A DNA stretch of 4,334 bases, taken from positions 1 through 4,334 of the IMG/VR virus record IMGVR_UViG_2671181050_000015. The stretch is one strand, 5' to 3'. This document shows positions 1 through 4,334 of the stretch, piece by piece. Position numbers and translations under genes: made by a program. The notes under the pieces are model-generated. The model saw nothing but the letters and a program-made list of their open reading frames with translations. It was not told the DNA's origin and did no database searches. How positions within the stretch are numbered: the stretch's first letter is position 1; each line of letters starts with the position of its first letter. This DNA comes from a virus (taxonomy: Duplodnaviria > Heunggongvirae > Uroviricota > Caudoviricetes).

Positions 1-222
1 ATGGCAGATATCATTGATTCAGCATCAGAAATTGAAGAATTACAGCGCAATACAGCAATAAAAATGCGTCGCCTGAACTACCAGACTGTATCCGCAACTC
101 ATTGTTGTGAGTGTGGCGATCCGATAGATGAACGAAGACGCCTGGCAGTTCAGGGTTGTCGGACTTGTGCAAGTTGCCAGGAGGATCTGGAGCTTATCAG
201 TAAACAGAGAGGTTCGAAGTGA
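1..222 (+). CDS. TraR/DksA-family C4-type zinc-finger protein (73 aa), phage/plasmid TraR type
   Basis: Complete ORF from ATG at 1 to TGA at 220-222. Translation contains C-x2-C-x17-C-x2-C (CCEC...CRTCASC) and an acidic N-terminus (MADIIDSASE). The core CECGDPIDERRRL...C..CQ resembles F-plasmid TraR as I recall it (CEACGNPIPEARRK...C.ECQ). Stop overlaps the next gene's GTG start (GTGA). Confidence 0.8.
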   Translation: MADIIDSASEIEELQRNTAIKMRRLNYQTVSATHCCECGDPIDERRRLAVQGCRTCASCQEDLELISKQRGSK

Positions 223-818
223 GCGAAATTAATTATCAGGCACTGCGTGAAAAGGCAGAGAAAGCAACTAAAGGAAGCTACATCGTAGGGCATACATCTG
301 TTAACCAACACGGCAATTTAACAGGAGTTTTTGTTTGTCAAAAATGGAAAGGAGAACCCGGTGGCGTGATTGCGGAATGTCATGTTAACTGCCTGATTGA
401 AACAGATGCTCAGGCTTATGCAAACGCTGAATTCATAGCAGAGGCTAACCCGGCTACCGTGCTGGCACTGCTGGATGAACAGGAAAGAAACCAGCAATAC
501 ATCAAACGCCGCGACCAGGAGAACGAGGATATTGCGCTTACGGTTGGGAAGCTGCGCGTTGAGCTTGAAGCAGCAAAATCAAAACTCAACGAGCAGCGCG
601 AGTATTACGAGGGAGTTATCTCTGATGGGTGCAAGCGTATTGCTGAACTGGAAGCGCGGGAAGTTCAATTACCGACTCGCTACGACCTTCGATATGGACA
701 CCCGATAAATGCAGATGAGCGACAAGTCATGATACCTAAAGAAAATGGCAGTTGGCTTTACCTGATTGACCTAGAACACGCATTACGCGTCGCTGACATT
801 CGCATCAAAGGAGAGTGA
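219..818 (+). CDS. Ea22-like (ead/Ea22 family) coiled-coil prophage protein, 199 aa
   Basis: GTG start at 219 preceded by GAGG (209-212) at 6 nt spacing. No in-frame ATG until near the C-terminus, so GTG is the likely start. N-terminal NYQALREKAEKA... and ANAEFIAEANPATVLALLDE followed by a heptad-rich central region (KLRVELEAAKSKLNEQ) match my recollection of ead/Ea22-like prophage proteins. Family call is from memory. Confidence 0.6.
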   Translation: MSEINYQALREKAEKATKGSYIVGHTSVNQHGNLTGVFVCQKWKGEPGGVIAECHVNCLIETDAQAYANAEFIAEANPATVLALLDEQERNQQYIKRRDQENEDIALTVGKLRVELEAAKSKLNEQREYYEGVISDGCKRIAELEAREVQLPTRYDLRYGHPINADERQVMIPKENGSWLYLIDLEHALRVADIRIKGE

Positions 819-819
819 T

Positions 820-1335
820 ATGGCGTTAACACACCACGAACTCTGTCAGATTGCGTACAAGTTCCTTAAGCGCAACGGGTTCAAGGTTTGCTTTCATGAC
901 CGCTTTGTTGCTGTAACCAGTACCGGAGAACAGCCAGATGCTATGGGATTCAGAAATTCAGCATCATGCCTGATAGAGGCGAAGTGTTCTCGTGCTGACT
1001 TGTTGGCAGATAGAAAAAAGCGTTTCCGTAAAAATCCCTCACTTGGCATGGGCGACTGGCGATTCTTTATTAGTGAGCCGGAAATTATTTCAGTTGAGGA
1101 TTTACCTCCCGGCTGGGGATTACTTCACGTTGTTAACGGAAGAGTACGGAAAGTACATGGATGGCCCAGGGGTAATTGCTGTTGGGGTAATCCTGACGAT
1201 AAGCCATTTACCGGGAATAAGCAGGTTGAATGCGATTACATGTTATCTGCATTAAGGCGCATGGAGTTGAGAGGGCACCTTAATGAAATATATGACGGTG
1301 TGATTGTTAATAAGAAAGAAGGAAACGCGGCATGA
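820..1335 (+). CDS. PD-(D/E)xK nuclease-fold protein (possibly MmcB-like), 171 aa
   Basis: ATG at 820 with AAGGAG (808-813) 6 nt upstream and 1 nt after the previous stop. Canonical signature present: P39-D40 (nt 934-939) then E53-A-K55 (nt 976-984), i.e. PD-x12-ExK. Stop overlaps the next start (ATGA 1332-1335). Confidence 0.6.
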   Translation: MALTHHELCQIAYKFLKRNGFKVCFHDRFVAVTSTGEQPDAMGFRNSASCLIEAKCSRADLLADRKKRFRKNPSLGMGDWRFFISEPEIISVEDLPPGWGLLHVVNGRVRKVHGWPRGNCCWGNPDDKPFTGNKQVECDYMLSALRRMELRGHLNEIYDGVIVNKKEGNAA

Positions 1336-2276
1336 TCACTATTACCAAAGGGCGACTGCTGACAATCAAGCAGTGGCGCGAAACATACGGACCGGGTAGC
1401 AACGTTGTACTGCCAGCAGAAGAAGCGGAAGAACTGGCACGGATTGCACTGGCATCATTGGAAGCAGATCCAGTTAAACGAGTTAACTCAGATCAGATGC
1501 ACCGAGTCTGCTTAGAAGCTAATCGCTATTTAGATAAATATGACGCGATGGCAAAAGAGGTAAATAAGTTGCTTGGACGCATCGCCCCACCAGCGCCAGT
1601 ATTTAACGGCGAATACGGTGACGCATATCAGGGCGCTCGTGAAGACCTGTCCATCTGGAAACGGCGAGCGCTTGAAGCTGATGAGCACGTTCGGCGACTG
1701 GAGCAAATCAATGACCACATGGTGAAAGAGGCGCAGGGAGAATCACGCATGGGCGAGCCTGTAATACGTGAGCCAGCACCGGTAGTGCCTGAAGAAGCAA
1801 CTCCGGAAAACGTAGAAATGCTCTCTGGCTATGTTTCAACGTACAAATTAACCGATAGCGAGCGCGATATTGCTGCCGAAATATGGAACGCCTGCCGCGC
1901 CGCCATGCTTCAGTCCGGAAACTTTCGGGAAAACAAGAATTCGTCAACCAATAATTTTCGGGAAATCGCGGAAACGTCAACCAACTATCCGGCAATTCCT
2001 AGTGAGGTGTTGTCCGCAATCCTGAAGGTTGCCAGGATTCGTGCCGATTTCGATGATTTTGACGGTGACAGGCGAGGTATCGGTGATTGTCTGGATGAGG
2101 CTGAGCAAGAGCTTATCGTTACCATTAACAAATATGCCAGTCAGTTGGCAGCAGAACCTATAGCGCCTAATGACGTTCGAGAGCAGACAGCCATTCCACA
2201 AGTTCCGGTAACTCCGGATGGTTGGATAAGCTGTAGTGAGCGAATGCCGGACGACAGGCAGGAGGTGAATCAATGA
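1332..2276 (+). CDS. Hypothetical prophage protein, 314 aa, ending inside a DUF551-like motif (DGWISCSERMPDDRQEV)
   Basis: ATG at 1332 overlapping the upstream stop; GAAGGA 8 nt upstream. Long uninterrupted frame with ordinary codon composition. The C-terminal WISCSERMPDD resembles the start of the DUF551 domain (W-I-x-[VC]-x-[DE]-R-[LM]-P-[ED]) but the ORF stops about 15 residues into it. Contains an internal 11-aa tandem repeat (NFRENKNSSTN / NFREIAETSTN). Confidence 0.6.
   Translation: MITITKGRLLTIKQWRETYGPGSNVVLPAEEAEELARIALASLEADPVKRVNSDQMHRVCLEANRYLDKYDAMAKEVNKLLGRIAPPAPVFNGEYGDAYQGAREDLSIWKRRALEADEHVRRLEQINDHMVKEAQGESRMGEPVIREPAPVVPEEATPENVEMLSGYVSTYKLTDSERDIAAEIWNACRAAMLQSGNFRENKNSSTNNFREIAETSTNYPAIPSEVLSAILKVARIRADFDDFDGDRRGIGDCLDEAEQELIVTINKYASQLAAEPIAPNDVREQTAIPQVPVTPDGWISCSERMPDDRQEVNQ
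1920..1985 (+). repeat. Imperfect 33-bp tandem direct repeat (2 copies) inside the 314-aa ORF
   Basis: Unit 1 (1920-1952) aactttcgggaaaacaagaattcgtcaaccaat versus unit 2 (1953-1985) aattttcgggaaatcgcggaaacgtcaaccaac. 25 of 33 positions identical, in frame, giving the 11-aa duplication NFRENKNSSTN / NFREIAETSTN. Confidence 0.7.
2260..2267 (+). promoter_or_regulatory. Shine-Dalgarno (AGGAGGTG) for the 27-aa peptide gene
   Basis: AGGAGGTG at 2260-2267 is an 8-nt perfect complement to the 16S rRNA 3' end, placed 5-7 nt before ATG 2273. It lies inside the last codons of the upstream ORF. Confidence 0.6.
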
Positions 2277-2356
2277 GCTGGCCTGATGCAATCGTAACTC
2301 TGGGGGTGGTATTCGCAGCAGCGTTTGTTGTGTTCTCGATTTGTCGATGGGGATAA
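2273..2356 (+). CDS. Small hydrophobic single-pass membrane peptide, 27 aa (MSWPDAIVTLGVVFAAAFVVFSICRWG)
   Basis: Not in the supplied ORF track (too short). ATG 2273 overlaps the upstream stop (ATGA) and follows a perfect SD at optimal spacing. A roughly 19-residue hydrophobic stretch is flanked by an acidic N-side (D5) and a basic C-side (R25). Fills the only otherwise non-coding 84-nt gap in a compact operon. Confidence 0.5.
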   Translation: MSWPDAIVTLGVVFAAAFVVFSICRWG

Positions 2357-2360
2357 CCAC

Positions 2361-2603
2361 ATGTTCGCTTTGATTCAACGCGGTCAGATATACACGGACA
2401 GAGCTGGATACCCCGTGGTGATTACTCGCATCACTGAGCACTCAGTGTTCTTTCGACGGATGGACGGACGATCCGGGCGGGTACGCATTGGTGAGTTAAA
2501 CTGCCTGTTCGAACATATTGACCACCAGGAGTACCGCAAAATTCTCGCGGACACTGAGCAGGAAAAGCACCTGAAAAAATTACGAGCCATAAAAAGGAAG
2601 TAA
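2361..2603 (+). CDS. Small prophage protein, 80 aa, DUF4222-like with basic C-terminal tail
   Basis: ATG at 2361 preferred over the TTG at 2325 used by the ORF track: it sits 4 nt after the peptide stop, GGGGA lies 8 nt upstream, and it avoids overlapping the peptide gene. Pattern IYTDRAGYPVVITRI...VFFRR resembles small DUF4222-type prophage proteins as I recall them. C-terminus KHLKKLRAIKRK is strongly basic. Confidence 0.5.
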   Translation: MFALIQRGQIYTDRAGYPVVITRITEHSVFFRRMDGRSGRVRIGELNCLFEHIDHQEYRKILADTEQEKHLKKLRAIKRK

Positions 2604-2606
2604 AGA

Positions 2607-2741
2607 ATGAATAAAGCATTTGAACGATGGGTCCACCAGCGTTACGGCAATCGCTATGACCTGACGCGAGATGTTGACGGCTTCTACTGTCGTGAAGTTG
2701 TGAAGCGAATGGTTGAAGTGTGGTGCCACTGCCGTGGATGA
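2607..2741 (+). CDS. Small Cys/His/Trp-rich protein, 44 aa (MNKAFERWVHQRYGNRYDLTRDVDGFYCREVVKRMVEVWCHCRG)
   Basis: Not in the ORF track. ATG 2607 lies 3 nt after the upstream TAA, with AAGGAAG (2594-2600) 6 nt upstream. Ends at TGA 2739-2741, 18 nt before the xis start. Contains C28, C41, C43, H10 and H42 (WCHC). Confidence 0.45.
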   Translation: MNKAFERWVHQRYGNRYDLTRDVDGFYCREVVKRMVEVWCHCRG

Positions 2742-2759
2742 AAATTTTATGAGGTTGGC

Positions 2760-3014
2760 ATGCAGACAATCATCTATCAGATAACCCCCAGCAAATGGTG
2801 TACGGAGAGAGTCCTCATTGCATCAACAGGGCTAAAGCCTGGCACCATTGAGCGGGCAAGAAGAAAGTCATGGATGCAGGGAAAAGAATACCGCCATTAC
2901 GCTGTAGAAGGTGATCCGGGGCACTACAGTGAATGCCTGTACAACATCGAAGAAATTATGCGATGGATCGAAAACCAGAAACAACCAGGTGCCAAAAATG
3001 CAAGTTCCGGTTAA
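2760..3014 (+). CDS. xis: Putative excisionase / recombination directionality factor, 84 aa
   Basis: ATG 2760 with GAGG (2751-2754) upstream. Small basic protein immediately upstream of and co-directional with the integrase. The pattern W-x(~11)-TIERARR-x2-W-x2-GKEY parallels the lambda-Xis-type arrangement (W...TVRRW...GREY) as I recall it. Confidence 0.6.
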   Translation: MQTIIYQITPSKWCTERVLIASTGLKPGTIERARRKSWMQGKEYRHYAVEGDPGHYSECLYNIEEIMRWIENQKQPGAKNASSG

Positions 3015-3047
3015 CCTGTTAATGCTCCTGGACGTCTGGGAGGTTTA

Positions 3048-4334
3048 ATGAGTAACGCATCATACCCGACAGGCGTTGAAAACCATGGAGGATCACTCCG
3101 TATATGGTTTCACTATAATGGCAAACGTGTCAGAGAAAACCTCGGTGTTCCTGACACAGCCAAAAACCGGAAGATCGCTGGTGAACTTCGCACTTCCGTT
3201 TGTTTTGCAATCAGAATGGGGAGTTTCGACTACGCCGCGCAGTTCCCTAATTCCCCTAACCTGAAACACTTTGGTCTGGGAAAAAGAGAGATAACCGTTA
3301 AGGCACTTTCGGAAAAATGGTTGGACCTTAAGAAAATTGAGATTTGTGCGAATGCACTTAACCGTTACCAGTCAGTAATTAAAAACATGTTACCAATGTT
3401 AGGTGAAAAAAAACTGGTTTCATCCATAACAAAAGAGGATTTACTTTTCGTAAGGAGAGATTTGTTGACCGGTTACCAAAAGCTTTCTAATGGAAAGACT
3501 TCTTCCATAAAAGGGCGCTCAGTGGTCACGGTAAACTACTATATGACAACCATAGCTGGAATGTTTCAATTTGCAACAGATAATGGTTATACCTCAGGAA
3601 ACCCATTTAACGGTCTGGCTCCCTTAAAAAAGTCCAAGGTAAAACCAGATCCTCTCACCCGTGACGAATTTATTCGTTTTATTGAGGCTTGCCGTCATCA
3701 ACAAACAAAAAACCTGTGGATTCTCGCTGTATACACGGGTATTCGTCACGGGGAGTTGGTATCGCTGGCATGGGAAGATATAGACCTTAAAGCAAGGACT
3801 ATAACCATCCGTAGAAATTATACAAAACTTGGCGAATTCACTCCACCAAAAACCGATGCAGGCACCGGAAGGACAATTCATCTGGTTCAACCAGCTATTG
3901 ATGCTCTTAAAAGCCAGGCGGAAATGACCATGCTTGGAAAGCAACATTCTGTAGAGGTGAAGCAGAGGGAATATGGGAGAACTGCTGTGCATAAATGCAC
4001 TTTTGTTTTTAGTCCTCAGGTAACAAAACAGCAGCAGTTGTCCGGACCTCACTACAAGGTTGACTCCATCAGGGAGTCATGGACAAGTATCTTAAAACGC
4101 GCAGGTCTGAGACACAGAAAATCGTACCAATCCAGGCATACTTATGCATGCTGGTCACTTGCCGCTGGAGCTAATCCTAGTTTTATCGCAAGCCAGATGG
4201 GCCACATAAACGCACAAATGGTATTCAATGTTTACGGAGCATGGATGAAAGACAACAATCACGAACAGATAGAACTCCTTAACAAAAGACTATCTGAAAG
4301 TGTCCCATGTATGCCCCATAAGAAAGTGGGGTAA
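3048..4334 (+). CDS. int: Tyrosine-type site-specific integrase, 428 aa, with N-terminal arm-type DNA-binding domain
   Basis: ATG 3048 with GGGAGG (3038-3043) upstream; TAA at 4332-4334. N-terminal PTGVENHGGSLRIWFHYNGKRVRENLG is the arm-binding (DUF3596-type) motif seen in IntS/IntR-like enterobacterial prophage integrases. Catalytic signatures present: TGIRHGEL (Arg box I), SRHTYA (box II) and GH...VYGAW (His and catalytic Tyr). More AT-rich than upstream genes. Confidence 0.93.
   Translation: MSNASYPTGVENHGGSLRIWFHYNGKRVRENLGVPDTAKNRKIAGELRTSVCFAIRMGSFDYAAQFPNSPNLKHFGLGKREITVKALSEKWLDLKKIEICANALNRYQSVIKNMLPMLGEKKLVSSITKEDLLFVRRDLLTGYQKLSNGKTSSIKGRSVVTVNYYMTTIAGMFQFATDNGYTSGNPFNGLAPLKKSKVKPDPLTRDEFIRFIEACRHQQTKNLWILAVYTGIRHGELVSLAWEDIDLKARTITIRRNYTKLGEFTPPKTDAGTGRTIHLVQPAIDALKSQAEMTMLGKQHSVEVKQREYGRTAVHKCTFVFSPQVTKQQQLSGPHYKVDSIRESWTSILKRAGLRHRKSYQSRHTYACWSLAAGANPSFIASQMGHINAQMVFNVYGAWMKDNNHEQIELLNKRLSESVPCMPHKKVG

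Follow-up and report, generated by a model that had tools for sequence, protein, structure and literature searches.

At the integrase-proximal end of an E. coli lambdoid prophage, a 44-codon open reading frame lies directly before the excisionase gene, xis, and its position raises the question of whether it encodes a protein and, if so, whether that protein binds metal, assists excision or does something else. We analysed positions 1 to 4,334 of the virus record IMGVR_UViG_2671181050_000015 (4,334 nt, hereafter the window). A sequence-only reading of this DNA had described an unlisted small protein gene just upstream of xis and proposed that its product could be a small metal-binding or nucleic-acid-binding module. 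The ORF was found where it had been placed, with an ATG start, 44 codons and a TGA stop, and it is a genuine small gene preceded by a good ribosome-binding site: the strong Shine-Dalgarno sequence is separated from the ATG by a 6-nt spacer, and xis starts 18 bases after the stop codon. The composition of the product had been given less accurately. C28 is correct, the other two cysteines are residues 40 and 42 rather than 41 and 43, the two histidines (residues 10 and 41) are present, and there are two tryptophans (residues 8 and 39) rather than three. The earlier observation was thus partly confirmed, and its interpretation, discussed below, is partly supported.

Over positions 2300..3100, the stretch that was searched, phage PhiR5_1 and prophages in several E. 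coli chromosomes match the window without a difference, and in these chromosomes the integrase gene adjoins mlrA (yehV); Stx phage BP-4795 is ~92% identical. Every gene of the window is on the + strand and the genes are tightly packed, in the order TraR/DksA-like, Ea22-like, further ORFs, DUF4222, small gene, xis and int (Table 1). The same order is found in BP-4795 and in Sakai Sp15, and the layout is known from lambda and Stx phages as the 'exo-xis region' (PMC8614690). The small gene has the position of an exo-xis accessory gene, a positional class rather than a homology family, since it lies between the recombination/ea22-type genes and xis on the same strand. Within this E. coli lambdoid prophage, ORF 2607..2741 is the final gene of the exo-xis (early-left accessory) region. 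At the other end of the window, the TraR/DksA-type protein corresponds to lambda Orf73, a protein modelled to bind RNA polymerase (PMC8614690). A scan of the window for promoter- and terminator-like sites revealed no excess of either.

Table 1. Features of the window, with coordinates counted from its first nucleotide.
Feature	Coordinates	Strand	Remarks
TraR/DksA-type C4 zinc-finger protein	1..222	+	
Ea22-like protein	219..818	+	
171-aa ORF	820..1335	+	matches only PHROGs without known function, plus a weak DNA-repair PHROG match (E 0.005)
314-aa ORF	1332..2276	+	larger ORF without assigned function
27-codon hydrophobic ORF, MSWPDAIVTLGVVFAAAFVVFSICRWG	2273..2356	+	
DUF4222 gene	2361..2603	+	Pfam PF13973, E 8.2e-14; RefSeq annotation
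Shine-Dalgarno AAGGAAG of the small gene	2594..2600	+	within the last codons of the upstream DUF4222 gene; read from the sequence
DUF4222 stop codon TAA	2601..2603	+	between the Shine-Dalgarno sequence and the ATG of the small gene
Small protein gene, 44 aa, MNKAFERWVHQRYGNRYDLTRDVDGFYCREVVKRMVEVWCHCRG	2607..2741	+	TGA at 2739..2741; PHROG 3871; WP_021524344.1
Shine-Dalgarno GAGG of xis	2751..2754	+	9 nt after the small-gene stop codon
Excisionase gene, xisR type, DUF1233	2760..3014	+	PF06806, E 2e-29; phrog_539; RefSeq name xisR
Tyrosine integrase gene	3048..4334	+	prophage end, adjoining host mlrA/yehV; RefSeq annotation of identical DNA

The small gene was compared across 100 loci, which comprised 17 from contigs representing one genome per species (spanning about a dozen enterobacterial genera), 80 viral contigs (the best 80 of ~500 IMG/VR relatives) and three annotated records. 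Conservation in related prophages had been named as a check by the sequence-only reading, and no locus had lost the frame: it was open in 100 of 100, starting with ATG or GTG. Among the 31 distinct coding sequences, pN/pS was 0.20 in the frame of the small gene; the other two sense frames gave 2.0 and 1.3. The three antisense frames carried stop codons in 5, 31 and 13 of the 31 unique sequences; the single antisense frame with a low pN/pS, as is to be expected where third positions coincide, has stops in all 31. Mean pairwise nucleotide identity was 0.37-0.48 over the 60 nt upstream, 0.64-0.85 within the ORF and 0.40 right after codon 44, so that an island of conservation is bounded by the start codon and codon 44 with unrelated DNA on its flanks. 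Different Shine-Dalgarno-like motifs precede the homologous start codon in unrelated contexts. The identity of codons specifying the same amino acid was approximately flat across the gene (0.57-0.70), which indicates that the protein is under selection and not a DNA or RNA signal embedded in the gene. RNA folds of the ORF/xis junction at the 3' end of the gene were no better than those of shuffled sequences (z about 0), and an Rfam scan returned no match. The size of the ORF alone is not beyond chance, as the window holds 55 ORFs of at least 25 codons. Given the conservation, we are in practically no doubt that this is a real protein-coding gene of 44 aa (48 aa in most relatives) under purifying selection.

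The gene is already known to databases as encoding a hypothetical protein, and its sequence is not new. The description of it as unlisted is accurate for older records, being unannotated in VT1-Sakai (AP000400) and phiP27, and does not hold for RefSeq, where the product is the hypothetical protein WP_021524344.1 (in CP027586), or for several phage annotations: it is annotated in PhiR5_1 and corresponds to ORF3 of BP-4795, to ECs_5743 in O157:H7 Sakai and to STM0895.1n in Fels-1. The window protein is a member of PHROG 3871 (annotation: function unknown), its residues 1-44 aligning with profile positions 1-44 of 48 at E 3.1e-31, and differs from this family in allele details only, ending at 44 aa instead of 48 and carrying a rare Val at position 36. 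The family comprises 75 clusters at 90% identity. An exhaustive profile search of 1.84 billion proteins yielded only 29 clusters at the 50% level, and the family reached no further in that collection; tblastn with a distant member recovered the same 44 phage records again. Nearly all members that were found lie in phages and prophages of Enterobacterales, and related DNA was found in 899 of 5426 complete E. coli genomes. Among the matches listed, the matching feature was labelled 'hypothetical protein' in 38 of 40 E. coli records, and the remaining two were partial matches inside a DUF4222 pseudogene. Scans of the window protein with Pfam, NCBIfam and PADLOC profiles identified no family at E up to 1, and the family profile gave only noise against PDB sequences, with nothing at E below 1. 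A literature search for ECs_5743 or phrog_3871 found nothing relevant. Two records attributed to Bacteroidota also carry the small gene, one in an assembly labelled Chryseobacterium sp. 18061 (L013) and one in Elizabethkingia phage EKP1 (L116). Their small genes show 77% and 83% protein identity and their neighbouring genes are typical of enterobacterial prophages; contamination or a wrong host assignment seems likely.

The structure of the window protein was predicted by AlphaFold using 43 aligned relatives (pLDDT 89.7). The model places a helix at residues 2-13, a beta-hairpin-like loop at 14-29 and a second helix at 30-43, and confidently predicts a compact helix / beta-hairpin / helix mini-fold. 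The same fold was predicted for a member with 39% identity that lacks two of the three cysteines (pLDDT 93.3, pTM 0.72). Comparison of the predicted fold with PDB structures gave no significant match. A Foldseek search of BFVD retrieved one family member (TM 0.92); the other resemblances were to segments of larger uncharacterised phage proteins, which were sub-threshold (E 0.2-5, TM about 0.7), carried no functional information and were set aside. In 72 full-length cluster representatives, the best-conserved residues are those of the core and the turn, with F5, Y17, L19, G25, Y27, R29, E30, V32 and M35 each conserved in at least 96% (F5 99%, Y17 97%, Y27 100%); W39 is conserved in 94%. The window protein is basic (pI 9.0), and net charge ranges from +2.7 to -4.2 across members.

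Several features distinguish the window allele. Codon 36 (2712..2714) encodes Val in the window, Phe in 58 of the 72 relatives and Tyr in nine; Val36 is thus a rare change at a conserved aromatic core position, and five loci among the 100 carry it. Where the allele has 48 aa, the TGA of the small gene overlaps the GAGG ribosome-binding site of the next gene (GTGTGAGGT), whose ATG follows 3-5 bases further on. In the 44-aa window allele, a divergent patch of about 15 nt brings an earlier TGA. This patch also creates a 4-codon mini-ORF, ATGAAAATTTTATGA, at 2738..2752, which is absent in BP-4795 and probably accidental. Around the junction at 2736..2762 and its counterpart in L004-L019, GTGTGAGGT is common to loci with unrelated downstream genes, and homology between phages breaks there. 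The GTGTGAGGT junction looks like a site of module exchange.

What might such a protein do? Exo-xis genes have been described as non-essential modulators of the lysis/lysogeny decision that are expressed early (PMC8614690). On the basis of its position and of the exo-xis literature (PMC8614690, PMC4195576), the small gene would be expressed early and dependent on induction. It would be transcribed with its same-strand neighbours in the early leftward operon after induction or infection, and translated from its own Shine-Dalgarno sequence in close coupling with the upstream DUF4222 gene and the downstream xis. In Ribo-seq data from an uninduced Sakai lysogen (PMC5597208 table S2), the small ORF, at 2,942,155..2,942,289, is not among the 465 translated novel ORFs, none of which is listed between 2,937,135 and 2,944,526; this absence fits a repressed prophage early gene and proves nothing. 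The product may act in trans, as a small protein that binds a host or phage macromolecule during early development, in the way proposed for other exo-xis proteins. It would need no structural zinc site and would not belong specifically to the excision machinery. For this account taken as a whole, an early, folded, trans-acting small binding protein independent of metal and of excision, we estimate a probability of about 0.55. That the protein is metal-independent and not an excision factor is, considered by itself, likely.

Lambda CIII and T7 Gp2 exemplify small phage proteins that are made early and work by binding a single host protein. Proteins of this type resemble the small protein in size, in the context of early expression and in their non-essential accessory character, and serve here as a working model; no sequence or structural similarity to them was detected, and the resemblance is a functional conjecture. 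Two lambda genes offer a comparison by position. Lambda orf55 (lambdap35) also lies directly upstream of xis in the leftward operon and encodes an uncharacterised protein of 55 aa (PMC8614690). It is a closer positional counterpart than Ea8.5, yet sequence homology to the small gene was not found (hhalign probability 0.2%), and the predicted fold of Orf55 has three strands and one helix (PMC8614690), in contrast to the helix / hairpin / helix of the window protein. The sequence-only reading had drawn its analogy with lambda ea8.5, whose product is a homeodomain/zinc-finger hybrid (PDB 2M7A). The likeness is one of position, both being small exo-xis accessory proteins, and does not extend to homology (hhalign probability 0.9%). 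Ea8.5 is 93 aa long and in lambda its gene is not adjacent to xis, as orf55 lies between; for the window protein there is no PDB fold match, and in its family there are no conserved metal ligands.

Of the alternatives to an excision-independent binding protein, the one that survives best is that the small protein acts with the excisionase, the integrase or their host factor to tune excision, a role also suggested by the sequence-only reading. The small gene is directly before a xis-like gene in 13 of the 17 species-representative genomes, and in two more a single gene intervenes, which encodes a LexA-type DNA-binding protein in L018 and is a 59-aa ORF in L006. Its stop codon overlaps or abuts the xis ribosome-binding site, as TGAGG in many loci, and in L017 it overlaps a GTG start codon (GTGA). 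In addition, at 3962..4336 of L101, a metagenomic contig (Logan DRR526068), a divergent version of the small-protein domain is naturally fused in frame to a DUF1233 excisionase. An excision-related role could explain both the usual position before xis and the fusion. However, the fusion was found in two contigs only and an internal ATG might start Xis separately, so we treat it as a lead and not as proof of a functional link. The variety of the excisionases that follow also argues against such a role: at least five unrelated families are represented (DUF1233/phrog_539, phrog_1553, phrog_66, PF07825, PF11112 and phrog_2917), and across these families the small protein is still 73-90% identical to that of the window. 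Small genes that are nearly identical can thus stand before non-homologous excisionases. Between L007 and L008, homology runs to 13 nt past the stop codon and the excisionases that follow are non-homologous; between L009 and L010, the ORF itself is homologous and the genes directly on both sides are unrelated.

Other copies have no excisionase beside them. In the nin region, the small gene is directly before a Q-like antiterminator gene (phrog_753) in E. coli phage PhiR5_2 and in Intestinirhabdus, and in Serratia a short ORF lies between the small gene and Q; the Q-linked copies in L014, L020 and PhiR5_2 are directly before phrog_753 or one small ORF away from it. On one metagenomic contig, the small gene is flanked by NinH and a methyltransferase. 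In two siphophages of 48 kb, vB_CfrS_K1M and CF-SP1, a DUF551 gene and then the small gene, which ends the island, lie between tail genes of the other strand; in K1M, a DUF2591 gene is present further upstream in the island. The full K1M record contains no annotated integrase, excisionase or repressor; for CF-SP1 the neighbourhood was read. Upstream, of all the genomes examined, those of E. coli and Shigella alone have a DUF4222 gene as the neighbour, and a different gene occupies this place in the other genera. Obligatory linkage to an integrase/excisionase module, by which a recombination directionality factor or its accessory protein would be recognised, was therefore not observed. Because copies occur far from any xis or int, modulation of excision is unlikely. 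The small gene is found with unrelated excisionases, with Q, beside NinH and a methylase, and without an integrase, and therefore behaves as a self-contained movable accessory unit, which tends to lie at module junctions at the distal ends of early operons.

That the protein is a mini-module for zinc or nucleic acid, with C28, C40, C42 and a histidine binding metal, possibly across a dimer, is less probable still. The window protein has three cysteines and a C-H-C motif, all three cysteines are retained in 21 of the 28 distinct proteins of the close subfamily, and the window protein is basic; these points favour the idea. The family as a whole does not bear this out. There is no four-ligand motif, as only three cysteines are available, and the candidate ligands are all less conserved than the core residues (C28 89%, C40 72%, C42 82%, H10 11% and H41 58% in the 72 full-length representatives). 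In distant members, the cysteines give way to Ala, Val, Leu, Arg or Phe, and the member with a single cysteine has the same predicted fold at high confidence. In the AlphaFold model, C28 precedes helix 2 and C40 and C42 are near its far end, so that one intramolecular site would be implausible in a monomer. Neither Pfam, NCBIfam nor PDB sequences matched, and homology to Ea8.5 was not found. The four conserved ligands able to meet that mark a zinc finger or ribbon are thus missing from the family and, as far as prediction goes, its fold does not depend on metal. The variable net charge speaks against a conserved basic surface that would bind nucleic acid. A zinc-mediated dimer could still form within the close subfamily.

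A role in anti-defence or host takeover, which the sequence-only reading had also raised, is conceivable; the PADLOC scan gave no hit. We consider it improbable, to about the same degree as zinc binding, that the small protein is a general helper for the dosage-critical regulators encoded at the ends of the left and right delayed-early operons, Xis and Q respectively, or else a so far unnoticed factor for anti-defence or host takeover that has a new small fold. Such a helper might shield Xis and Q from host proteases or act on a host factor that they share. If true, this would explain why the gene is so often the last before a xis or Q of any family, and why a fusion to Xis is tolerated.

It is slightly more doubtful that the gene acts mainly in cis, as a translated leader feeding ribosomes to xis or Q or as a boundary for int-xis exchange, with the peptide itself unimportant. 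The overlap of its stop codon with the downstream ribosome-binding site in many loci, the break of inter-phage homology exactly there, and the many unrelated contexts in which nothing separates it from xis or Q are all consistent with this. Against it, purifying selection acts at the amino-acid level (pN/pS 0.20), synonymous sites vary freely over the gene, and there is no stable or conserved RNA structure. The gene is also conserved where the downstream gene encodes a methylase or is on the opposite strand, and tight packing is a general rule in these operons. The idea that the ORF is not a gene, being open by chance through constraints from the opposite strand or neighbouring genes, could appeal to its shortness, to the lack of a Pfam family and to its absence among the translated ORFs of the uninduced lysogen, but is effectively refuted by the open frame, the pN/pS and the identity island, every conservation test speaking against it, and by the lack of conservation of the long antisense ORFs at 2431..2769 and 2580..2729.

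The small gene is otherwise an ordinary uncharacterised phage accessory gene, with nothing surprising for its class. The main value of the analysis is that the labels of zinc finger and excision factor are removed and that the gene is shown to move independently of its neighbours. Roughly one complete E. coli genome in six carries the gene; Shiga-toxin prophages of O157:H7 and prophages of O104:H4 strains are among the elements that have it. The exo-xis region is reported to affect prophage induction and, through it, the production of toxin. As a conserved 5-kDa protein with a confident predicted fold and no significant match to a solved structure, it is a reasonable target for small-protein study.

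The genes upstream were also inspected. In EHEC, the prophage regulator RgdR (ECs1581), a member of the DUF4222 family, acts as an activator of type III secretion and a repressor of motility (PMC3378721). The DUF4222 gene of the window is no more than a distant relative of RgdR (41% over 27 aa) and has RGQ where RgdR has RGD. In E. coli and Shigella it travels together with the small gene and in the same reading frame, with the TAA plus one codon between them; the small protein itself is unrelated to DUF4222. A fused or neighbouring copy of the small gene was looked for at RgdR's own locus, and none was found. The 90%-identity cluster that holds the small protein also includes 80-aa DUF4222 proteins, and a read-through or fused form may link the two proteins somewhere. 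In L110 (E. coli P15-385), at 1407..1511, a deletion has occurred through which the 5' part of the DUF4222 gene runs directly into the final 50 nt of the small gene, and RefSeq annotates the result as a pseudogene. The pair is occasionally lost.

At its end, the 314-aa ORF matches no more than the first 16 positions of the DUF551 profile before a stop codon is reached, and its BP-4795 counterpart is a complete DUF551 protein. The window version looks like a truncated or recombined mosaic gene. The 27-codon ORF MSWPDAIVTLGVVFAAAFVVFSICRWG, which is unannotated in the RefSeq record CP027586 and whose exact sequence is absent from the protein collection, has a strong ribosome-binding site, GGAGGTGA, and an ATG that shares bases with the stop codon of the ORF before it (ATGA). 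Many related loci retain it with substitutions, in the pattern M-S/N/T-W-P-D/E-A ... S-I/L-C/F-R-W-G, and it directly precedes the small-gene/xis fusion in L101. It probably encodes an unannotated small membrane protein.
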